Positions 11,634 through 22,512 of a stretch of 64,000 bases of DNA are shown here, piece by piece. The number at the start of each line of letters is the position of its first letter. Within the stretch, counting starts at the first letter, position 1. A model generated the notes under the pieces. That model was not told where the DNA came from, ran no database searches, and worked only from the letters and a program-made list of their open reading frames with translations. The position numbers and the translations under genes were made by a program. Location of the stretch: assembly GCA_041690135.1 (NCBI GenBank), contig JAWLHY010000009.1, positions 256,001 to 320,000 on the forward strand, given 5' to 3'. Source of the DNA: Armatimonadota bacterium (GTDB lineage: Bacteria; Armatimonadota; SYMT01).

Positions 11634-13646
11634 TTAGCGCAGCCATCCGCTCATGATCTGGGCGATGCCTCCCGGTGTTACCGATGGGTGCACATGGAGG
11701 TCTTTCTCTTTATCCAGAGCACGGTACACCTGGCGGGGCCACGCGTACGCCTGTTCGATCTCGGCTGGTGTCGCCGGGGTGCCGTCGAGCCGGAAAGGGG
11801 CGGCCACGGCCACCGGTCGGGGGGCAGCCAGTGCGGCCAGATGGGGGAGATCGCCGGCTTCCATCAGCCGGGGGCTGAAGAGACCCATCCGTACACTATC
11901 GGGGACGTGGCCACCCGTGAACGAAAGTGCGGGCTCGATGCCGGCGGAGCCTTGCAGGCGCGGGTCCAGGGCCGCGGTAAGGTAGGCCGCCAGCGCTCCC
12001 TCTCGCCAGCCGAGCACGGCAAACCGTTCGATTCCCCGTGGCTCCAACGCAGTCATCAGTTGCCGGAGGTCCAGCACCCACTGACCGAGGAGCGGACGAC
12101 CGATCCAGAGCGACCATTCTACGAGGTTGTGGTCCGGAATGGCGTCGCCCAGCGCCTGGCCGGGGAGAGTAAGCGATCCACAGCCCCTTAGCTCCAGGGC
12201 GCGCGTATGGATTCCCGCCTCGCGCAACGCCGCGGCAACAGGAGAGTTCAACGCCGCTTCTAAACCCGCCGGATGCAGCAGGAGCACCGCGGCCCTACCT
12301 CGTGCTTCACCGGTACCGCGAAGCGCCGCCGTCGGAATCCGGACGCCCTCTTCCGGTTCGAGTTCATCGATCGTGTAAGGTTCAGCCGGCCGGCCCTCAT
12401 GCAGGCGCGCTTTGCCCGGGCTTGGAGGGAGGGCCAGCACGTCCCGTAGTGTTCGCAACCGGCCGTCCCGCAGCTTTCCCCAGCCGTTCCTGGTCACTGG
12501 TTGCGAGGCGGCCTCCGCCAGCTCCTGACTGCGATTTCGCACCCAAGCCGCGGTGGTCATTACCTTCCCGGACCGGAACGGCGGGCTGTAACAGCGGAGA
12601 GCTTCCGGGTCCTCGGTCAGGATCGCCGGCTCAGGTGTGGGGGAGCCGTCCCCTTCTCCTTTCAACCACCGCCTCATCCAGCCGTACATCGCCTCCCGCA
12701 TTTCCTGGTTGTAGGCGTGCCCCGATTCGACAATCACGTGCCGCACCTTCGCATCCGTACCATGCGCGTGGAAGTAGGGACGGGCGCGGTCGAGCGCCTG
12801 GGCGGCGATCGTGGGGCCGAAGTGCGGGACGTCGCGACTCGCGGTGATGACCATCAGGGCCCGCGGCGCCACCATCCCCAGGAGATCGCCCTCTTCGGCA
12901 AAGGTGAGACCCCCCAGCAGCACTTCATCCACGCAGCAGGCCGCGGTGAGGTAAGAGGTGAAGGTGCCGACGCTGCACACCGGGACCGCGCACTGGATGC
13001 GTTCGTCGAAGGCACTGAGATACGTGGTCTGGTTCCCCCCGCCGCTGGCGCCGGTGCAGCCCAGGCGCTGCCCATCCACGTCCCGCCGAGACTGGAGGTA
13101 GTCCAGGGCACGGATGTTGTCGTACAACTGCAGGCCGTGCAGAGGAGTGCCGATGGGCCAGAGGCTAGCCCCTAGTAGGCCGCCGTGGTACTCGTTCTGA
13201 CCGATCTCCGTCCCCCGCTCCCCGGCGCCCCAGGCGTCGAGGGTCAGCGCCACGAAACCGAGCTTGGCCAGCCCGACGCAGCGGCTCTGGACGACCGGGT
13301 CGCGCCGGGCACCCGGCCAGTGACCATGCACGCACAGCACTGCCGGAAAGGGGGCTTTGCCGCGAGTAGGAACGTAACAGCTCGCCGTCGCGTAGCAGCC
13401 CACTCGGGTCTGGAAGATCAGCTTTTCGATCCGGTACCCATCCCGTTCCAGGGTGCCTAACACCTCCGGTTGCAAAGGCGCCTTCTCCGCCGGCCAGGTG
13501 CCCTCTGCGACCAGGATGCGGGCGCGGATCTCGGCCCCCCGTCGCGAGGCCTCCTGGGTGGAACGAGGGGCAGGATCACTTTCGCGCAGGGCGCGGGCGG
13601 CGTCGAGGTACCAGTTCTTCAGGCGGTCAACAGCAGTGGCTTCCAT
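11634..13646 (-). CDS. Two-domain alpha/beta hydrolase (acetylxylan esterase / Abhydrolase_7-like)
   Basis: PAVLCVHGH, nucleophile elbow GASGG, LLGMVAPR, GHAY. The second hydrolase-like domain has a degenerate elbow (GWREGA). Confidence 0.85.
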   Translation of the reverse strand: MEATAVDRLKNWYLDAARALRESDPAPRSTQEASRRGAEIRARILVAEGTWPAEKAPLQPEVLGTLERDGYRIEKLIFQTRVGCYATASCYVPTRGKAPFPAVLCVHGHWPGARRDPVVQSRCVGLAKLGFVALTLDAWGAGERGTEIGQNEYHGGLLGASLWPIGTPLHGLQLYDNIRALDYLQSRRDVDGQRLGCTGASGGGNQTTYLSAFDERIQCAVPVCSVGTFTSYLTAACCVDEVLLGGLTFAEEGDLLGMVAPRALMVITASRDVPHFGPTIAAQALDRARPYFHAHGTDAKVRHVIVESGHAYNQEMREAMYGWMRRWLKGEGDGSPTPEPAILTEDPEALRCYSPPFRSGKVMTTAAWVRNRSQELAEAASQPVTRNGWGKLRDGRLRTLRDVLALPPSPGKARLHEGRPAEPYTIDELEPEEGVRIPTAALRGTGEARGRAAVLLLHPAGLEAALNSPVAAALREAGIHTRALELRGCGSLTLPGQALGDAIPDHNLVEWSLWIGRPLLGQWVLDLRQLMTALEPRGIERFAVLGWREGALAAYLTAALDPRLQGSAGIEPALSFTGGHVPDSVRMGLFSPRLMEAGDLPHLAALAAPRPVAVAAPFRLDGTPATPAEIEQAYAWPRQVYRALDKEKDLHVHPSVTPGGIAQIMSGWLR

Positions 13647-13757
13647 ATCGGTGACTCAAATGGGGTGAAGGCAGCGAGTCAGGGTTCGGCGGAGGGTGCC
13701 ATGCACGTACTTGCGCGCCGGTAGAGGGCGGAGAAAGCGGATTTGGGATCATCCAGA

Positions 13758-13772
13758 GGGACCGACGGTCCC
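13758..13772 (-). promoter_or_regulatory. Candidate bacterial SECIS hairpin
   Basis: GGGACC-GTC-GGTCCC stem-loop starting exactly 11 nt after the UGA at 13786-13784; the loop begins with GU. Confidence 0.45.
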
Positions 13773-13774
13773 AG

Positions 13775-14323
13775 CTATCGACATCAGCCACCCTTGAGCT
13801 TGATCGGCTTGGGAAACCGGTTCTCGACCCGGTATTCCTCGGCCGGGAACCCGAGGTTACGGCAGACGGTGAGGAACTGCGGCAGCTTCGCACGGCGCGG
13901 GTCGTAATCCACTACCGCCAGTCCGATGCGGGCATCGACCACGGCTGACTGAACCCCGGGGACCTGGCAGAGGGCGCTGGAAACCGACTGGGCGTTGGCA
14001 GTTGTCTCAAGGTCGGAGATTTCCAGCGCAACCTTCTCAACTCGCGTGGACTGAGGTTTTCCTGCCGATAGTTTTGTTGCCGGAGTACGGACCGTACGGG
14101 ATGCAGGTCTGTTCCTCTTTGCCGGCTTGCGTGTTGCCGCGCTCGCATCGGGCGTTCTTCCGGCGCCCAGGCTACCGGCAGTAATCACGAGAGCCAGGCA
14201 AACTTGATGGTACTGTACCCAAACGCGGCGGGTTCTTTTCACTTGCGCCACACTATCTCGCCTTTCCGCTCCTTCGGTAGGTGACACTCTCCCCACCAGC
14301 AAGTTTCGGGCGAATCCTCGCAC
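13775..14323 (-). CDS. Secreted heavy-metal-associated (HMA) fold protein lacking CxxC; possible selenoprotein (...KGG-U-C-R*). The plain ORF ends at TGA 13784
   Basis: HMA pattern ..V..AL..VPGV..A.VD....A.V.YD....GF. The stop TGA is followed in frame by TGT CGA TAG. Start codon is uncertain. Confidence 0.7.
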
Positions 14324-14347
14324 CGCCCAGAGTGAGGCGAGGGCGTT

Positions 14348-15646
14348 CTACATCGCCGTGTGCGGCCCGCGTGCCAGCGCCTCGCGCAAAGCATTGCTCC
14401 GACGCGTGCAGTGGATTTGCCAGTCCGACGAAGATTTGCCGCCAGCCGGTTTGAGCTCGAAGAACTGGGGTCGCTTGAGGACTTCCGTCAGCCGGTGTTG
14501 GAGGGCGTAGTGTGCATAGAGGCCGAGGGTCACATCCGCCGGGGCCGACAGTTCGCGTTCGGTGAGAGCGCAGCCGATGGTTGCCAGGCAGATCGCTACC
14601 TGACCCTGATATTCGACGTTGAGCGCTCCTTCGATGCCCTGCCAGCCCAGGTGGCCGAACATGGCCCAGAAGCCGAGTTGTGACAGGGCCATTTGCTTTA
14701 CGGCGCTCAACAGCAGCCGGCCCTGGCTTTTTCGGAGCGACTGGGCGAGGGCGGTCCAGAGGTCTTTCCGCACCGCCTCGAACTCCGCGCGCGCGATCCG
14801 GTAGCCATCCGCCATCGCGGGGTCAGCGACCGGGGCGGTCCCGCTCCCGCCTTCCAGCCCCAGCAGTTGGCCCAACCGGAGCAGGCGCTGCTCGGCGGCG
14901 TCCGTGGCCAGGGCGCGGAACTGAAGCGCCTGCACCACCGGCTCGTCGGCGTAAACGGTGAGCCCATCGTAGCCAAGGGCACGGGTAATGGAAGTGAAGT
15001 GCCGGTAAGCGGGGTGAGAGGCGATCTTGTCCGCCGCCTCGCTGATCGGCGCCAGGCCCGGCACGTCGCGGAGGTGCTTCGCTTCGATCCGGATGTTGGA
15101 GGGGCTCCGTGGCCCGACCTGGACGCGGACTCCCGGTAGTTCGACAGTTACGCCGCGATCAGCAAGCCACTCCGCCTGTTTGGCGATAGGGTCCCAGGCG
15201 TTCGTATCCGGCCCCAGGTGTGGTCGCGTGGCCAGTTCCAGAAAGGCATCGCGGTAGAGGTCGCGCCGGCGGTTCCGATCTCGGAGGGTGAGGGGACGCG
15301 GACCGTAGAGCCGGAAAGCGTTCGCCGGGCGGTGGATGGCCGTCGGCACCCGGAGGGTAATGAACGCTCCGCGGTTGTCTTTGATCCGGATGCTGCCCAC
15401 TTCATCCCGGACACCGCTAAGGAGGCGGAGGCTTTCCGGGCTCGCCGTCAGAACGGACGCTTCCTTGGCCGGAGGCGCGGGGTCCCCAGGGCTGGAAGCC
15501 TTCTCCGACTCCTCGCTGCGGGCAGTGGTCTCGGCGGGTTGCGTCAGCGCCGGCGTGGTGGGTGAAGTGGGTTCAATTTGAGCCTGCGCGGCGGCCGGTC
15601 CGGCCACCGCGAGTGCGATCGCATAGATCCAGAAATAACGACTCAT
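14348..15646 (-). CDS. Hypothetical secreted protein
   Basis: ATG at 15646 follows GGGAGGGA. Signal peptide MSRYFWIYAIALAVAGPAAA, then a Pro/Thr-rich linker and a helical domain. Confidence 0.75.
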   Translation of the reverse strand: MSRYFWIYAIALAVAGPAAAQAQIEPTSPTTPALTQPAETTARSEESEKASSPGDPAPPAKEASVLTASPESLRLLSGVRDEVGSIRIKDNRGAFITLRVPTAIHRPANAFRLYGPRPLTLRDRNRRRDLYRDAFLELATRPHLGPDTNAWDPIAKQAEWLADRGVTVELPGVRVQVGPRSPSNIRIEAKHLRDVPGLAPISEAADKIASHPAYRHFTSITRALGYDGLTVYADEPVVQALQFRALATDAAEQRLLRLGQLLGLEGGSGTAPVADPAMADGYRIARAEFEAVRKDLWTALAQSLRKSQGRLLLSAVKQMALSQLGFWAMFGHLGWQGIEGALNVEYQGQVAICLATIGCALTERELSAPADVTLGLYAHYALQHRLTEVLKRPQFFELKPAGGKSSSDWQIHCTRRSNALREALARGPHTAM

Positions 15647-15945
15647 CGATTCCCTCCCGGCACGACGGCTTGCGTCTGCTGTTGCTCCCTGAATTCTACC
15701 CCGGTTGCCGTCTGGATTCCGACGCGGCGTCGGAGACCGCATCAACTACCTACCGGAGGACTGCACCCTGATGAAGGACGACGAACCCTAGTGGCGCGCT
15801 CGCTGCCCAATGCCAACTTGCCTCTCTTATGTACGAGTGAAGGACCTTCTGTTGAGGGCGGCCAACGAATCGGCAAAGGTCGGGAAGACCGTACCCAGGG
15901 CTAGCCATGCTGCGAAGTTGCCCAGGGGAAACCAATTGGAGGTCA

Positions 15946-16444: not shown

Positions 16445-17692
16445 ATGCTGCGGTCCAACCACCGGTGGCTCTGGCCCCTCTTTGGGTCCCTGCTAGCAGT
16501 CCTGGTTGTGAGTACGCTTTTTCGGGTGGTAAAGGCCGGCGCCGAGGCACGCCTGCGTGCCTTGAGTGCAACGGAATTGGAAGCCCGCCTGCGCGCCACC
16601 CCGGAGAACTCCGCGCTCCGGTACGCTCTTGGCCAGGCATATGCGCGCGCAAACCGGCATAACGACGCCGCTCGCGAGTTCATCGCGGTTCTAAAGCGGG
16701 AACCCGCCCGCCCGGACGTCCTGAACGACCTCGGCGCAAGTTACCTCTTGCAGGAGCGCTTCTACGAGGCACTGGTAGCTCTTCAGGCTGCAGTGATTGC
16801 CCAGCCTGATTATGCTCTCGCTCACGCGAACCTGGGCCGTCTTCACCTGGCAACCGAAATGCCTTTCACGGCGGTCCAGGATCTCGAGCGGGCTCACAGG
16901 CAACAGCCGAGGAATATATCGATCTCGTACGATCTCGGTGAGGCGTATCAGCAGACACTCAACTTCCGTTCAGCGGAACGAGCCTACCTCCAGGCCTTGC
17001 GCCTGGACCCTACTTACACACCGGCAAGGGTGGGTTTGGGACGGGTCCTCTTCAGCCTGACCCGATACGACGAAGCGAGTCGGCAACTGGAACTCGCACT
17101 CCAGGCCGACCCACGAAACGCATCCGCCCTGCTGGCACTTGCACGTGTCCGGATGGAACAGAACAACACTCACGATGGTTGGGAAGACGCGCTCACGCTC
17201 CTGGTGAAGGCGGCGGAGGCTGACTCGCAGATGCCGGAAGTCCACTACGAACTCGGAAGAGTCTCACTGCGACGGGGCGATGCCGGAGCGGCCATAGAGT
17301 ACTTGAAGAAGGCGCTTCTCCTGTCGCCAGATCATCCCGGTGCCATGCAGCAGATGGGGCGGGCATTGCGATTGGCAGGGCGAACGGCGGATGCCCGCCG
17401 CCTGGAAGCACAGTTGCGGCACGAGGCGCTACGTAGTCGCGAAGAGGCTCGCCTGGAAGAACGCGTCCACCAGTTCCCAGAGGATTGGGAAGCCAAAGCC
17501 GAACTCTGTTCGCTCTATCTTGAGACCGGTAAGACAGGGTTGGCGGCGCTACTACTTCGCGAGCTGGAGCAAGGTGCTCCCGCACTCCGCCAGTTGCCAA
17601 GCCTTCAGACAAGCCTCCGGCAGCAGCTAGGCAGCCGGAAACGGTCACCGCTACCCACTCCGGCACAGGCGTCGAACGGAGGCCCCCATTGA
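16445..17692 (+). CDS. Tetratricopeptide repeat protein with N-terminal TM anchor
   Basis: Repeated LG..Y....A......AL..DP TPR units. Confidence 0.88.
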   Translation: MLRSNHRWLWPLFGSLLAVLVVSTLFRVVKAGAEARLRALSATELEARLRATPENSALRYALGQAYARANRHNDAAREFIAVLKREPARPDVLNDLGASYLLQERFYEALVALQAAVIAQPDYALAHANLGRLHLATEMPFTAVQDLERAHRQQPRNISISYDLGEAYQQTLNFRSAERAYLQALRLDPTYTPARVGLGRVLFSLTRYDEASRQLELALQADPRNASALLALARVRMEQNNTHDGWEDALTLLVKAAEADSQMPEVHYELGRVSLRRGDAGAAIEYLKKALLLSPDHPGAMQQMGRALRLAGRTADARRLEAQLRHEALRSREEARLEERVHQFPEDWEAKAELCSLYLETGKTGLAALLLRELEQGAPALRQLPSLQTSLRQQLGSRKRSPLPTPAQASNGGPH

Positions 17693-19422
17693 TCCTGGCT
17701 TCTTACCGGGTTTGGGCCACGTCTTCTCGTGCGTGGTTGGCGATAGGTTCCCTGGTGTCGATCGGGTTGCACTCCGGGTGCGTACCGCCGCGCTCTACTC
17801 CCGCTTCCACGATCACTGCGTCGGCCAGGGGTCCCGCGCTGTTAGAGGAGGTCGCACCCGCAAGGGGCCTGGAGTTTCGCCACGAGGCTAGCGACCGCGC
17901 GCCACTCACCATTGTGGAGACAATGGGAAGTGGCTGCGCCTTCCTGGACTACAACAACGACGGTTGGCAAGACATCTTGCTAGTAAACGCTGGGCAGGAT
18001 TTCCGGCAATCGCGGCAAATGCCCAATACCCGCCTGTTCCGCAATGATCAGGGGACTTTCACGGACTTTACCTCGGAGGCGGGCCTCTCGATTGACTTTT
18101 ACGGAATGGGTTGCTGTGCGGGCGACTTCGACAACGATGGCTGGACAGATCTGTTCTTAACGGGTTTCGGGCGAAACGCACTGCTGCGGAATACGGGAAA
18201 GGGCAGCTTTCAGGATGTCACTTCGGCCTCTGGAATCTCGGCGGCTACGCACTCCTGGGGGACGGGTTGTGCATTCGTGGATATAGACCGCGATGGCTGG
18301 CTCGATCTCTACGTCGCGAATTACATTATTTATGATCCCGACCTGCCGCTGTGCCGTTCCGGGTCGGTGATGACCGGTTGCACGCCCAATCAGTATCGAA
18401 CACAGCGGAATCTTCTCTACCTCAACGAACGGGGATCGCGGTTCAGGGAATGCGCCGAGTCGCGGGGAGCGGATGATCCGTCCGGTGCGGGGCTGGGAGT
18501 TACTGTTGCCGACTTCGATGACGATGGTTGGCCGGATATCTTCGTGGCCAATGATGGAACCCCCAATGCACTCCTCCACAACCTTCGAGGCCGTTTTCGC
18601 AACGAAGGACAGTCCAGTGGGGTTGCATTTGCGGAGACGGGGGCCATGCGGGCCGGAATGGGTTGTGATGCAGCCGACTACGACGGGGATGGGCGAATTG
18701 ACCTCATCATCACCAACTTCCAGCACGAGCCTAACTCCCTTTACCGAAACCTGGGGAGGCTCTCCTTCGAGGAGACAACCGGCCCCGCCGGAATCACCAC
18801 CCCCAGCATCATGCGCCTAGGCTTCGGAGTTTCCTTTGCTGACCTGGATGGGGACGGCCGCGCTGATCTTTACGTTGGAAACGGGCATGTCTTCGACAAC
18901 GTCAAGGAGTTTGACGACACAGCCAGTTTCGAGCAGACGGATCAAGTATTTCTGAACGTCGCAGGCCAGCGTTATGCGGAGCAACTGCCACGCTCCGGCG
19001 CCATCCCGGCAGTCTCCTCTGTATCCCGCGGATTGGCCGTGGGTGATTACAACAACGACGGCGCACCGGATGTGCTGGTAAACTCGCTCGAACGGCACGT
19101 TCGCTTGCTGGAGAATCGGACGGGCAATACCGGAGGGTGGCTGGGGCTCAATCTCGTGGGGACTCGATCCAATCGCAGCGCCGTCGGAACGCGAGTCGAA
19201 CTGCACGGTGCAGGCGTGATGCAGGTTCGGGAAGTCCGGAGTGGCGGTAGTTACCTGTCTCAGTCGGATTTCCGACCGCTCTTCAGGTTCGAAAGCGCGA
19301 TCGAGCCGGCCCAGATCACTCTGAAGATTCGGTGGCCAACGGGTCGCTGGCAATCGGTAAAGCCTGAGGGAACAGGGCGCTATCTCACGATTAAGGAGCC
19401 AGAGTTCCGTGACGAGGAGTAG
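17689..19422 (+). CDS. CRTAC1 family protein (FG-GAP/VCBS repeats + ASPIC/UnbV), probable lipoprotein
   Basis: Multiple D.D.DG..D Ca-binding repeats (DYNNDGWQD, DFDNDGWTD), SGGSYLSQSD and IRWPTG; lipobox-like HSGC. Confidence 0.92.
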   Translation: MILASYRVWATSSRAWLAIGSLVSIGLHSGCVPPRSTPASTITASARGPALLEEVAPARGLEFRHEASDRAPLTIVETMGSGCAFLDYNNDGWQDILLVNAGQDFRQSRQMPNTRLFRNDQGTFTDFTSEAGLSIDFYGMGCCAGDFDNDGWTDLFLTGFGRNALLRNTGKGSFQDVTSASGISAATHSWGTGCAFVDIDRDGWLDLYVANYIIYDPDLPLCRSGSVMTGCTPNQYRTQRNLLYLNERGSRFRECAESRGADDPSGAGLGVTVADFDDDGWPDIFVANDGTPNALLHNLRGRFRNEGQSSGVAFAETGAMRAGMGCDAADYDGDGRIDLIITNFQHEPNSLYRNLGRLSFEETTGPAGITTPSIMRLGFGVSFADLDGDGRADLYVGNGHVFDNVKEFDDTASFEQTDQVFLNVAGQRYAEQLPRSGAIPAVSSVSRGLAVGDYNNDGAPDVLVNSLERHVRLLENRTGNTGGWLGLNLVGTRSNRSAVGTRVELHGAGVMQVREVRSGGSYLSQSDFRPLFRFESAIEPAQITLKIRWPTGRWQSVKPEGTGRYLTIKEPEFRDEE

Positions 19423-20806
19423 GAAACTGGTTTGCTTCATACTGACGGGCGTCGCCGCCGGTGGCGTTGCGTTCTGGGCCGCCGCCGCAGGGCCGCGCCC
19501 CGCACAGAAGGCAACAGATGGCCCTACGAAGTCGTCCATCCCAGGTGCCGAACCCAACCCGAGTCAGCGGTACGCACCCGATCCGGCGTTGGAATATGCC
19601 CGAGCCAGGGCCCAGGTCGAGCAAACAATTGCGGCTCAGCCCAAAGCCCTCTCGCTTCGCATGCAGGCTGCGGAGTTTTATATGCGGGCTGGAGATCATC
19701 CGGCGGCGCTACCCCACCTGCGGGTGGCAACGCGGTTATCCGAAGATCAATTCTTTCCCTGGCTCGCCTTAGGGGATGCGGCTACCCTGGCCGGGGAACC
19801 GCAACTGGCGGAGCGCGCCTATACTCGTGCAAAAAAGCTGGATGCGCGACACCCATTACTTTTCAGGGGCTACGGGCAGCTTCTGATTAGCCGGAAGAGA
19901 CTGGCTGAAGCGCAGAATGTACTGGAGCGTGGTCTTGCGCTACATCCAAAAGATGTAGAGATTCGTACCACACTTGGGAATTTGTTCCTCATCAGGAACA
20001 AGCCGGGAAGGGCCATCGAGGTCTTGGAGCCGGCCGTGAAGGCGGCACCGGCCAGGCCAGACTTGCACTATTTGATTGCCGAGTCCTATGAGCGCGATTT
20101 GAAACTCGAACGAGCCATCAGCCACCTTCGTGATGCCGTTCGTCTGGATCCGGCAATGGATAGTGCCTGGGGCCGGCTCGGACTTTACCTCGTCAATCTC
20201 ACAAGGTATGCGGAAGCGAGAGCACCGCTCCAGCGAGCGATTGAGTTAAGGCCGGATGAGCCGCATTACCACTGGGCGCTTGGAGACACTTATCTGTTAG
20301 ACAGCGGTCTCCAGAACGGCTTCGCGCTGGCAGCGGAAGCATACCGGAAGGCTCTCAAGCTGTCTCCACACAATGAAAAGGCACTCTATTCCTTCGCGAT
20401 GGCTCTTACCCGCCGCGGCAAAGAAGAGGACCTGAGAGAAGCAGCGGAGTTGCTCGAGCGCCTGGTGAGGCTTCAGCCCCAGGATATCAATGCTCATTAT
20501 AAACTTGCTGAGACTTACCGGCGGCTCAGCCGGCCCGAAGACGCAAACAAGCATCTCAAAGTCTTTCAGCGGCTCTCAGCGCAGCACCGGAGTAAGCTTC
20601 GAAACCTCTATCAAGGCGCTGCCTTTCGAGACACTTTTGAAGAGCACATGAAGCGTGGCCGGGAGTTCATGGCGCGTAAACGCCCGGATCTAGCCGTAAA
20701 GTCGTTCGAAGTGGCCGTTGCGCGAAATGGGAAGAGTACGGAAGCCCGGCAGGCGTTAGCCCGGGCTCGTCGGGCGACCGGACAGCAGACGGGAGGCATT
20801 CCTTGA
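19409..20806 (+). CDS. Tetratricopeptide repeat protein with N-terminal TM anchor
   Basis: About 9 TPR-like helical repeats; overlaps the genes on either side. Confidence 0.88.
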   Translation: MTRSRKLVCFILTGVAAGGVAFWAAAAGPRPAQKATDGPTKSSIPGAEPNPSQRYAPDPALEYARARAQVEQTIAAQPKALSLRMQAAEFYMRAGDHPAALPHLRVATRLSEDQFFPWLALGDAATLAGEPQLAERAYTRAKKLDARHPLLFRGYGQLLISRKRLAEAQNVLERGLALHPKDVEIRTTLGNLFLIRNKPGRAIEVLEPAVKAAPARPDLHYLIAESYERDLKLERAISHLRDAVRLDPAMDSAWGRLGLYLVNLTRYAEARAPLQRAIELRPDEPHYHWALGDTYLLDSGLQNGFALAAEAYRKALKLSPHNEKALYSFAMALTRRGKEEDLREAAELLERLVRLQPQDINAHYKLAETYRRLSRPEDANKHLKVFQRLSAQHRSKLRNLYQGAAFRDTFEEHMKRGREFMARKRPDLAVKSFEVAVARNGKSTEARQALARARRATGQQTGGIP

Positions 20807-22512
20807 AGCGCCACGGGATCGGATGCAATGTGTTGAGGCTGTTCTGGCTTGGATGTCTGGGCGTGTCGTTAGGATACGGCTGTTCCGGGCCGCGCCACCA
20901 GGCAGTAGACGCAGTTCCCACGGGCACTTCTACCAGGCAGTTTCGCAACGTGACGGCTGAAAGTGGGTTGGGGGCATTTCGCCATACGGATGGAGGCACG
21001 GGACGCCGGTTTTTCGTGGAGCAGATTGGCAGCGGACTGGCGATATTTGATTTCGACGGTGATGGCCTGCAGGACGTGTACTTCTGTACGGGTACCGCGC
21101 TTCCGGGATACACAGGGCCTGCGCCCCACAACCGGCTGTTCCGGAACCGGGGTGACGGTACATTTGAGGACCGCACTACCGCCGCGGGTGTCGCATGTAA
21201 CAGGTATTCGATTGGCGCCGCAGCCGGCGATTTCGACAACGATGGTGATATAGATCTATATGTATGTTGCTTTGACTCGAATGTGCTTTATAGGAATAAC
21301 GGCGACGGCACTTTCGCCGATGTGAGTAAAGTCTCGGGTGTGGACGATCCGCGGCTGAGCAGCAGTGCGGCCTGGGGTGACTACAACGGCGACGGCTACC
21401 TCGATCTTTTTGTTGCAAACTACGTGAAGTATCGCGTGGATGAAGATCTCTGGTGTAGCAAATACGAAGGTCAGAAAAGTTACTGTGGCCCAACGCTCTA
21501 TCAGCCGGAGCGCCACACACTCTATCGGAACAATGGGAACGGAACTTTTACGGATGTTTCCGGTCCCAGTGGAGTAGCGAGCAAGCTGGGGAATGGCCTT
21601 GGGGTGGTGTGGTTCGATTTTGACGATGATGGCCGGCAGGACATCTTCGTAGCAAATGATCAAACTCCGAACCACCTCTGGTGGAACCGTGGCAACGGCA
21701 AGTTCCAGGAAGTAGCTCTGGAAAGAGGGGTAGCCTACGGAGAAGAAGGGAATGCCCGCGCTGGGATGGGGGTAGATGCGGGCGACTTCGACAATGATGG
21801 TCGAGTGGATCTCGTTGTTACAAATTTTAGTGAAGAAAATAACGCAATCTACCGCAACGAAGGTGCTGCGTTCCGCGACGTTGCTTTTGACCGCGGGGTC
21901 GGCGCAGAAACCTTGATGCACCTCGGTTTCGGTACTGCGTTTCTTGACTACGACCGAGACGGCTGGTTGGATCTGTTCTTTGCCAACGGGCATGTTATGG
22001 ACGACATCGCGATGTACTCCGACTCCGTTACCTGGGAGCAGCCACTCCAGTTGTTCAAGAACACCGGCACCGGGCACTTCCGGGAAGTATCCGACGCCGC
22101 TGGGGTGGGCGAAGGGAAGTGGGTGGCCCGGGGTGCCGCACAGGGAGATCTGGATAACGACGGCCGGAAGGACGTGATCATCTCCGTGCTGCGAGGCCAG
22201 CCGCTCTATCTGCGGAATGAATGTGCCCCAGCGGCGCACTGGTTGGGAGTGGACCTCCATCCCGCGTCCGGCAATGCCCAGGCAATCGGCGCGACGGTTT
22301 GGCTCACGGCAAATGGCGTCACCCAGCGCCGAGATGTCTCAACCGCGGGAAGTTTTGCCTCCTCGAACGATCCACGACCGTTGTTCGGACTGGGTCCGGT
22401 GAATAAAGTGGATGAACTTAAGATCAGGTGGCCGAGCGGGCGGGTGACCTTGCAAAAAGGGCCGGCTCTCGACCGCTATCTGCGGATCGACGAACCGGCC
22501 CAGCCGCACTAG
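20803..22512 (+). CDS. CRTAC1 family protein (FG-GAP + ASPIC/UnbV), probable lipoprotein
   Basis: DFDGDGLQD, DFDNDGDID and DYNGDGYLD repeats; AGSFASSND and IRWPSG; lipobox-like GYGC. Confidence 0.92.
   Translation: MKRHGIGCNVLRLFWLGCLGVSLGYGCSGPRHQAVDAVPTGTSTRQFRNVTAESGLGAFRHTDGGTGRRFFVEQIGSGLAIFDFDGDGLQDVYFCTGTALPGYTGPAPHNRLFRNRGDGTFEDRTTAAGVACNRYSIGAAAGDFDNDGDIDLYVCCFDSNVLYRNNGDGTFADVSKVSGVDDPRLSSSAAWGDYNGDGYLDLFVANYVKYRVDEDLWCSKYEGQKSYCGPTLYQPERHTLYRNNGNGTFTDVSGPSGVASKLGNGLGVVWFDFDDDGRQDIFVANDQTPNHLWWNRGNGKFQEVALERGVAYGEEGNARAGMGVDAGDFDNDGRVDLVVTNFSEENNAIYRNEGAAFRDVAFDRGVGAETLMHLGFGTAFLDYDRDGWLDLFFANGHVMDDIAMYSDSVTWEQPLQLFKNTGTGHFREVSDAAGVGEGKWVARGAAQGDLDNDGRKDVIISVLRGQPLYLRNECAPAAHWLGVDLHPASGNAQAIGATVWLTANGVTQRRDVSTAGSFASSNDPRPLFGLGPVNKVDELKIRWPSGRVTLQKGPALDRYLRIDEPAQPH

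Follow-up and report, generated by a model that had tools for sequence, protein, structure and literature searches.

The question raised by this locus is whether a TGA triplet near the 3' end of a short gene terminates translation or is read as selenocysteine (Sec, U). The gene lies on the minus strand of a 64,000-nucleotide stretch of Armatimonadota DNA (contig JAWLHY010000009.1, positions 256,001 to 320,000), hereafter the window, and codes for a small protein with a heavy-metal-associated (HMA) fold. Its 3' end reads AAG CTC AAG GGT GGC TGA TGT CGA TAG, and writing U for the TGA gives a translation that ends in ...KLKGG-U-C-R-stop. An earlier note, made from the letters of the window alone, had placed the TGA at 13786-13784 with TGT, CGA and TAG following in frame, and these coordinates were confirmed on the minus strand. 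It is very probable that this is a genuine selenoprotein gene, mis-truncated at the UGA, and a member of an uncatalogued family. We infer with good confidence that SelB-dependent decoding of the UGA would give an exported HMA-fold protein ending in Gly-Gly-Sec-Cys-Arg.

The proposed full coding sequence spans 13775..14251 on the minus strand, as do all features of the gene given below, and would comprise a GTG start, 155 codons, the UGA as Sec, Cys, Arg and a TAG stop. The UGA (13784..13786) would be residue 156, an assignment based on TGA being present at the site in 10 of 10 distinct loci and on the Sec machinery of the genome. The two codons past it (13778..13783) would specify Cys157 (TGT, 13783-13781) and Arg158 (CGA, 13780-13778), and the putative true stop, TAG (13775..13777), has a stop codon as its counterpart at exactly the same place in all 10 loci. 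At its maximum length the open reading frame (ORF) begins at 14323. The start is likely the GTG at 14251, or alternatively that at 14242, as judged from alignment with 38 homologs. Of the extent 13758..14323 given in the earlier note, the 3' details stood and the 5' end did not. The UGA would be decoded by SelB with Sec-tRNA(Sec), and SelB would be recruited by a minimal Sec insertion sequence (SECIS) hairpin of 6 bp with a GUC loop, starting 11 nt downstream. As only two codons follow the UGA, this hairpin lies beyond the proposed real stop, in the intergenic spacer.

Codons past the UGA in related loci

A word-index protein search for homologs returned 110 candidates, 38 of them at E ≤ 0.001, and Gly-Gly was the exact protein end in all 38, in the form ...[RFPKPIKLK]GG. 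A HMMER profile search of 1.84 billion representatives resulted in 3767 matches within the same E limit, and the best 150 of these were examined. The last profile position was reached by 25 of these 150 and coincided with the final protein residue in every one of the 25; P0047, P0058, P0061 and P0087, also from the best 150, are ordinary GMTCxxC HMA repeat proteins. Altogether 177 proteins were collected, 52 of which end at the tail motif and none of which continues past it (P0048 and P0053 are fragments and stand outside the 52). Where family proteins carry a name, it is 'copper chaperone CopZ' or 'heavy-metal-associated domain-containing protein'. The claim of the earlier note that ORF callers cut the protein short is borne out, with 52 of 52 family proteins ending at ...GG.

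DNA was obtained from 61 related genomes, a genome contig scan and a metagenome contig scan. Codon-level evidence comprises 10 distinct loci, namely the window, L014, L015, L051, L052, L053, L054, L055, L057 and L058, while the other 42 of the 52 family proteins are known by protein sequence only. Protein identity of the related loci to the window is 45-63%. The genome contig scan returned two loci only, which are the same as L014 and L015 over the compared stretch and were not counted. The metagenome contig scan returned 10 loci, one of which (L056) is a repeat of L014 and two of which (L059 and L060) were left out of all counts. These two were rejected as family members (E 2e-5 and 3e-5), being distant HMA-like ORFs without the tail motif. 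They hold CxxC-less HMA-like domains at the C-terminal end of larger ORFs (L059:615-773 and L060:1889-2071) with a ...TGLAVVDYDG core in common with the family, and may be non-selenoprotein cousins of the HMA domain.

The codon after the GG or SG is TGA in all 10 loci and never TAA or TAG. The first codon past it is TGT in two loci and TGC in eight, the second is one of six codons for Arg, Lys or Ser (CGA, CGC, CGT, AAA, AAG or AGC) and the third is TAG, TAA or TGA, again in 10 of 10 loci. Past the hairpin, the sequences no longer align. This is the pattern that would be expected for purifying selection on a translated Sec-Cys-basic-stop end, not for a conserved RNA sequence, and the variation past the TGA would be synonymous or conservative for a Sec-Cys-Arg/Lys/Ser-stop peptide. 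The earlier note had proposed to look for Cys or TGA at this site in homologs, and for retention of the downstream Cys codon and of the hairpin; TGA fills the site and both downstream elements are kept in all 10 loci.

The background frequency of such an arrangement was taken from a crude set of ORFs of the window's genome (G000), limited to at least 150 codons and to a G+C content at third codon positions (GC3) of at least 0.72. Out of 3727 TGA-ending ORFs in this set, 131 have TGY as the next codon and 74 have two sense codons followed by a stop. The combination TGA-TGY-NNN-stop occurs in 3 of the 3727, and the hairpin in none of these 3. A hairpin of at least 6 bp at the tested position is found in 231 of the same 3727 ORFs, with a loop that starts with G in 66. 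The HMA gene itself stands outside the set because its GC3 is 0.64 (the G+C content of the window is 64%). Significance rests on the combination of features and on the comparison among loci, not on the hairpin alone.

In a phylum sample of 401 genomes, 42 had a match to the family. Only G000, G001 and G002 matched at about 1e-41 and with the tail; the match in G004 is an ordinary CxxC HMA, and the remaining matches were taken as generic HMA on the basis of their score and of match ends short of the tail, such short ends being seen in all of the other 39 genomes but G004. A search of the ESM Atlas gave best scores of 0.78-0.82, which are leads only, and nothing was gained from it.

Hairpin, Sec machinery and other readings of the UGA

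The TAG is followed by CT and then by GGGACC (13772-13767), GTC (13766-13764) and GGTCCC (13763-13758). This minimal SECIS-like hairpin, GGGACC-GUC-GGUCCC (13758..13772), lies fully 3' of the proposed true stop and was assigned on covariation and on its likeness in geometry to the SECIS of a formate dehydrogenase-like (FdhA-like) gene in the same genome. The earlier note had described a perfect 6-bp stem starting 11 nt past the UGA, and its spacing, coordinates and stem are all correct.

A hairpin with a stem of 6-8 bp that starts 9-12 nt past the UGA is present in 10 of 10 loci; the hairpin sequence common to L051 and L052 has a bulge. The loop is GUC in six loci, GGC in two, GUU in one and CGGGC in one, with a G among the first two loop bases in every case. 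Covariation was evaluated on a MAFFT alignment (A4) with a fixed structure of seven pairs. Pairing was seen in 89.6% of cells as compared to 72.2% in shuffles, both sides change in five of the seven pairs (12 cells), and the covariation score was reached by 0 of 500 shuffles. Sliding the 3' partners by 1-3 columns reduced pairing to 37-60%. These figures are conservative because the L058 hairpin is offset in A4 and was counted against the structure.

The earlier note had named selA, selB, selC and selD as genes to look for, and selA, selB, selD and tRNA-Sec are all present in G000, an assembly of 9.1 Mb in 25 contigs with 97% completeness. The SelB wing domain scored 82 bits within a 644-codon frame, SelA 481 bits and SelD 370 bits, the selD gene carrying one in-frame TGA. 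tRNA-Sec (67 bits, ARAGORN anticodon tca) adjoins selA and selD. SelA and SelB were also found in G001 and G002, which carry the gene.

Two clear selenoprotein genes are present elsewhere in G000. The first codes for an FdhA-like molybdopterin enzyme (G000:C3:653691, plus strand) and has one in-frame TGA, in the context QARV-U-HSSTV, with an 8-bp hairpin 11 nt past the UGA and a GUC loop. The second is SelD (G000:C1:1150907, plus strand), with KCGG-U-ASK and an 8-bp hairpin that starts 25 nt past the UGA and has a GUG loop. The window hairpin and the FdhA-like SECIS have in common the 11-nt spacing, the GUC loop and G/C-rich closing pairs; they differ in that the stem is 6 bp in the former and 8 bp in the latter, and in that the FdhA-like element is translated whereas the window hairpin would stand wholly after the stop. 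On account of the common spacing and loop, the candidate looks like what the SelB of G000 already reads.

A crude scan of G000 for further Sec genes, based on an in-frame TGA, coding signal on both sides and a hairpin, gave four further candidate sites at C18:52166 (+), C5:53470 (+), C11:103915 (+) and C5:18890 (-). The motifs at these four are FFYDEDCGM-U-ARF (CxxU), FRCER-U-ATCK (UxxC) and two paralogous (Y/F)CT-U-P(H/N)E(T/A)TSARVA sites; the first of these motifs presumably belongs to a DCC-like protein.

The hairpin was also considered as a terminator and rejected as such. A terminator and promoter scan of 13400-14600 called nothing, and a T-run after the stem is absent in nine of 10 loci, L015 having TTT. 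L055 has, 3' of the SECIS-like hairpin, another stem-loop that is accompanied by a T-run (L055:2947-2985), and since it follows that hairpin the two elements are separate there. In L014 and L015 the next gene begins within about 30-40 nt. An Rfam scan of 13600-13900 gave nothing above threshold, and no bacterial SECIS family was noticed among its matches; the only match, DUF3085 RNA (18.4 vs 40.6 bits, E 0.52), was dismissed as chance.

Among readings without Sec, the one that survives best takes the UGA as an ordinary stop, so that the protein ends at ...KLKGG and the hairpin is an mRNA-stability, processing or regulatory element before the hydrolase gene that lies downstream. This agrees with all database gene calls ending at GG, with TGA being the commonest stop among the crude ORFs of G000 (3727 of 8959) and with the unremarkable energy of the hairpin. 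In other protein classes, furthermore, a C-terminal diglycine is known to serve as a functional end. A plain stop nevertheless leaves unexplained why TGY, an Arg/Lys/Ser codon and a stop follow the TGA in every locus when sequence past the hairpin is free to vary. The lack of a T-tract or terminator-like call, the separate stem-loop and T-run in L055 and the match in spacing and loop to the FdhA-like SECIS also speak against it, and we consider this reading quite improbable.

Read-through that inserts Trp, Cys or Gly in place of Sec, by near-cognate decoding or an alternative code, would likewise fit the frame conservation past the UGA. There is no genome-wide reassignment of the code, however, because UGA is the most used stop among the crude ORFs. 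In addition, the position and G loop of the hairpin are as in a SelB-type SECIS and as at the FdhA-like and SelD sites, the Sec machinery is complete, and Sec sites typically come with a Cys partner next to them according to the available portions of 10.1101/2022.07.06.499078 and PMC4607533. Insertion of an amino acid other than Sec is accordingly held to be very improbable. Translational coupling, by way of the invariant UGAUG, to a short ORF that overlaps the gene and opens with this AUG is scarcely credible, since TGATG, found in 10 of 10 loci, results automatically from TGA plus a Cys codon, the AUG-started frame varies from 10 to 182 codons across the loci with no conserved peptide or length, and frame 0 stops exactly two codons later in all of them.

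A number of points weigh against Sec insertion at this site. No Cys form (GGCC) was found among the 52 family proteins or among the 25 end-reaching matches within the best 150 of 3767, so that the Cys half of the question posed in the earlier note is answered in the negative and a criterion of Sec/Cys pairing among homologs is inapplicable. Homology through the Sec site is short because only two codons follow the UGA. The hairpin of L051 is identical to that of L052, and a single taxonomic family accounts for three of the loci; the 10 loci consequently represent fewer than 10 independent lineages. SelA and SelB were detected in 5 of 5 same-family genomes tested, gene carriers or not, and as relatives without the gene also have Sec machinery its co-occurrence with the gene is non-discriminating. 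The window hairpin had a fold z-score of -1.14, and 29 of 200 shuffles did as well (a fraction of 0.157 of 300 shuffles in a second test); in none of the 10 loci was the folding energy of the downstream 48 nt better than that of shuffles (z -1.30 to +0.82). Covariation was used instead of folding energy because energy is uninformative in DNA of 64-71% G+C.

The HMA domain, the C-terminal arm and its possible chemistry

Read as a selenoprotein, the product would carry its Sec on a C-terminal arm that follows an N-terminal export segment, a linker and an HMA domain. The first 31 residues (14159..14251) form a basic n-region and a hydrophobic segment, probably a signal peptide or membrane anchor. 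A hydrophobic segment, defined as a 15-residue window with a Kyte-Doolittle value of at least 1.6, follows a few basic residues in 31 of the 34 members of at least 125 residues, and the three members without it look N-terminally cut or borderline. This lends support to the export proposed in the earlier note; to judge from sequence, the protein would be exported or membrane-anchored by means of this segment.

Residues 32-71 (14039..14158) make up a basic Pro/Arg/Ala-rich linker, the length of which varies in the family alignment. Linker and domain together have an isoelectric point of 8.8-11.4 in 32 rows, those in which a hydrophobic segment was recognised; two N-terminally cut rows gave no meaningful value. 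A motif R-L-[S/C]-[A/S]-[G/A]-A-R-G-P is seen just before the HMA domain in many members (P0004, P0006, P0014 and P0021), with a degenerate version, K-L-S-A-G-K-P, in the window protein (residues about 60-66, about 14054-14074). The motif could serve for processing or docking.

The HMA (MerP/CopZ-like) ferredoxin-fold domain spans residues 72-141 (13829..14038). Pfam HMA (PF00403) matches the window protein with 22.1 bits (E=2e-4), which is under the gathering score of 24.8, and a precomputed PF00403 match is present on 29 of the 38 homologs. The family profile matches GMTCxxC HMA repeats with E values down to about 1e-32. An AF2 model of residues 68-158, made from a 40-row alignment with U entered as C, has the order beta-alpha-beta-beta-alpha-beta at a pLDDT of 91. 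When the model was submitted to Foldseek, the top match in the PDB was MerP 1osd (TM 0.94 on target, root-mean-square deviation 0.9, 71 columns), followed by copper-ATPase HMA domains and CopZ proteins; there were 50 PDB matches at E ≤ 0.001, and all among the matches listed are HMA domains. No Cys is found in the beta1-alpha1 loop, at the position of GMxCxxC, in any aligned member. The HMA fold without CxxC that the earlier note had described thus holds through the AF2 model and MerP 1osd, though the Pfam score is below gathering.

The domain is followed by the Lys-rich C-terminal arm ...VENRFPKPIKLKGG (residues 142-155, 13787..13828). A 39-row alignment shows no variation at R145 or from P147 to G155, and the end RFPKPIKLKGG is shared by 40 of the 52 family proteins. 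The last 13 residues were modelled at a pLDDT of 60-69, in keeping with the flexible tail suggested in the earlier note.

On this swinging arm, the adjacent Sec and Cys, which together are the one chalcogen site invariant in the family, would act as the working centre. Given a selenoprotein, chelation of a soft metal or metalloid by a selenolate-thiolate pair is tentatively favoured because the sequence and structure relatives are all metal carriers, and we regard it as a reasonable possibility. Metal binding by the Sec-Cys tail is plausible by analogy, the ground for it being fold homology. Two findings count against it: the canonical metal loop is gone, and no mer, cop, czc or ars families were found in 16 neighbour ORFs of 8 related loci or among the window neighbours. 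On account of the same two findings a redox or carrier role gains in likelihood. Within a selenoprotein, a selenenylsulfide redox arm would still be rather unlikely and a carrier of a covalent S/Se adduct distinctly unlikely.

These two roles can be put together as one alternative in which the Sec-Cys arm is a redox (selenenylsulfide) or covalent-carrier arm and not a metal site, a possible though doubtful reading. The Cys-Sec tail of thioredoxin reductase (TrxR) forms a reversible selenenylsulfide, and the C-terminal Gly-Gly-Cys arm of SoxY offers a likeness for a carrier of S/Se adducts. The loss of the metal loop in all members and the absence of metal genes from the neighbourhoods agree with such a role, as does an arm that is predicted to be flexible, has Gly-Gly before the pair and is probably exported. 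A second Cys, C130 of helix 2, is shared by at least 90% of members and also agrees with such a role. Against it, the nearest relatives are metal carriers: each of the MerP, CopZ and UxxU models recognises 10 of 10 members with scores under its cut-off, and the fold is matched best by MerP. Moreover, no partner reductase or sulfur-oxidation genes were seen in the neighbourhoods scanned, and C130 is replaced by Ser in L057 and L058. In favour of such a role, again, a selenylsulfide redox centre has been proposed for the Cys-Sec end of DUF466 in the accessible text of PMC4607533, where the Cys-Sec selenylsulfide of TrxR is also mentioned.

Directly downstream of the gene and co-directional with it lies an alpha/beta hydrolase of 670 aa (AXE1/Abhydrolase_7-like, 11634..13646, minus strand), given here as context only. 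A hydrolase of AXE1/Abhydrolase_7 type is directly downstream in five of the 10 loci (the window, L014, L015, L051 and L052), mnmG is upstream in three (L051, L052 and L055), and other neighbours include glyoxalase, epimerase, PPK2, FtsX and planctomycete cytochrome domains. Directly upstream in the window, an ORF at 14348-15745 (minus strand, 465 aa) was matched by neither Pfam nor NCBIfam at E ≤ 1; it bears a hydrophobic segment at the N-terminus and is not syntenic in the other loci examined. The wider surroundings hold polysaccharide-synthesis genes, pairs of TPR and FG-GAP/ASPIC genes and a DUF1559 protein, G000 having 110 DUF1559 matches in total, a number that points to a Planctomycetota-like organism in view of where DUF1559 is common. 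At 16445-22512 (plus strand) two consecutive pairs are found, each a TPR-repeat protein followed by an FG-GAP/UnbV_ASPIC protein, which suggests that a module of two genes was duplicated in tandem. Public sequencing runs, which covered small shares of the stretch, contributed one window-identical DNA contig of 251 nt that spans 13680-13930 and one RNA-library contig of 282 nt that spans 13957-14238 with 4 differences, too thin to show transcription or habitat.

Known selenoprotein families and the meaning of the locus

Comparison with known families was based on NCBIfam release 20.0. All matches of the window protein are sub-threshold, namely NF041115, MerP, CopZ types and NF045683, and the UXX-star, GUXX-star, KCU-star, SaoC and MbdU models gave no match at E ≤ 10 to any of 10 members, bearing in mind that HMMER filters may hide very weak matches. 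An HMA fold with a C-terminal GG-U-C is not among the families in the available passages of sections 4, 6, 7 and 13 of the 2026 review PMC13188914, which tabulates prokaryotic selenoprotein families and includes HMA-type entries whose Sec lies in the loop as well as C-terminal 'star' families. The available portion of PMC2398784 (GOS) names a 'MerP' selenoprotein and gives no motif there. The texts and supplements of deep-Sep and BSepDB (for the latter, part of the file) hold no matching entry and none with PF00403, 'heavy' or MerP, and the CopZ rows in these supplements belong to a different, 2Fe-2S-type family. A literature search for a selenoprotein with HMA or MerP found no such family, a description in Haft & Tolstoy 2025 or in the final Haft & Gwadz 2023 being possible. 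As no NCBIfam selenoprotein model or catalogue text examined covers it, this is in all probability a new selenoprotein family. For such families the preprint 10.1101/2022.07.06.499078, in the part available, asks for no fewer than 10 examples, TGA in 100% of them and a similarity that runs through U. The present family has at least 10 examples and 100% TGA, and at the level of sequence its similarity appears to run through the U as far as two residues allow.

In design the family resembles the 'star' families KCU-star/DUF466 (NF033934), SaoC (NF040734) and UXX-star/GUXX-star (NF041114, NF041211 and NF041212). As far as the accessible texts describe these, they likewise have Sec no more than three residues from the C-terminus and beside a Cys, annotation also cuts their genes at the UGA, and a short G-loop hairpin SECIS likewise lies 3' of the true stop. 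In SaoC, UAG stands directly after the UGA, and a stem of 7 bp that carries a GGU loop comes 10 nt past the UGA (10.1101/2022.07.06.499078, available part), and SaoC proteins likewise have signal peptides; DUF466 has a Cys-Sec-stop end and a 5/6-bp hairpin with an invariant loop G (PMC4607533, available part). The present family differs in its HMA fold and in the order Sec-Cys-basic residue in place of Cys-Sec. SaoC and DUF466 proteins are, in the same accessible texts, mostly Cys-Cys, whereas no Cys form was found here. What is common to these families is design, not ancestry.

A combination of HMA fold and Sec is likewise known from NF041115 (UxxU metal-binding (seleno)protein), NF045683 (MerT/CopZ fusion) and a UxxC cation-transporting ATPase. 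NF041115 is the best NCBIfam match of the window protein (28.5-30.4 bits vs a cut-off of 95) and matches 10 of 10 members; the family scores far below the 375-bit cut-off of NF045683. In the HMA selenoproteins of PMC13188914, within the sections available, Sec replaces a Cys of the canonical loop, whereas here the loop has neither Cys nor Sec and the proposed pair is on the C-terminal arm.

The best structural match, MerP (TIGR02052; PDB 1osd and 1afi), is likewise small and has an N-terminal export-type segment. TIGR02052 matches 10 of 10 members below its cut-off (best E 4.4e-10), with 24-25 bits for the window protein as compared to a cut-off of 92.55. In contrast to MerP, the window protein has no GMTCxxC and no mer genes are seen nearby, and it has an extra basic linker and the putative Sec-Cys arm. 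An analogy of working, not of descent, is provided by thioredoxin reductase and MerA, which have Gly-Cys-Sec-Gly and Cys-Cys tails and thereby likewise place a vicinal chalcogen pair on a flexible, Gly-flanked C-terminal arm. The present protein differs from both in that it has no flavoprotein domain, the Sec-Cys order is reversed, the context would be extracytoplasmic and there is no homology.

As a composite picture, we put forward an undescribed and obligately Sec family of exported HMA-fold proteins in which the CxxC loop is dead and the chemistry may have moved to a Lys-rich Gly-Gly-Sec-Cys swinging arm, which would take up and pass on a soft metal or reactive S/Se species outside the cytoplasm and would depend on a minimal SECIS past the true stop. 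With all of its parts taken together we rate this as a serious possibility, just short of probable.

Since all 52 database proteins seen are cut at the UGA, database entries would lack the only invariant reactive site of the family; the annotation would be mended by a family model that allows for Sec. If confirmed, the locus would provide a compact natural SECIS of 15-19 nt that acts wholly outside the ORF, 11 nt past a UGA three codons from the end, and C-terminal Sec tags call for just such a layout. In terms of protein evolution, a classic metal-binding scaffold would have given up its loop site and acquired a Sec-Cys arm at the terminus. The lack of a Cys counterpart is unusual and speaks for a chemistry that requires selenium as such, in which Sec is not an interchangeable upgrade of Cys. 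For the organisms concerned, the finding would add an exported selenoprotein to large, DUF1559-rich and Planctomycetota-like genomes and their relatives.

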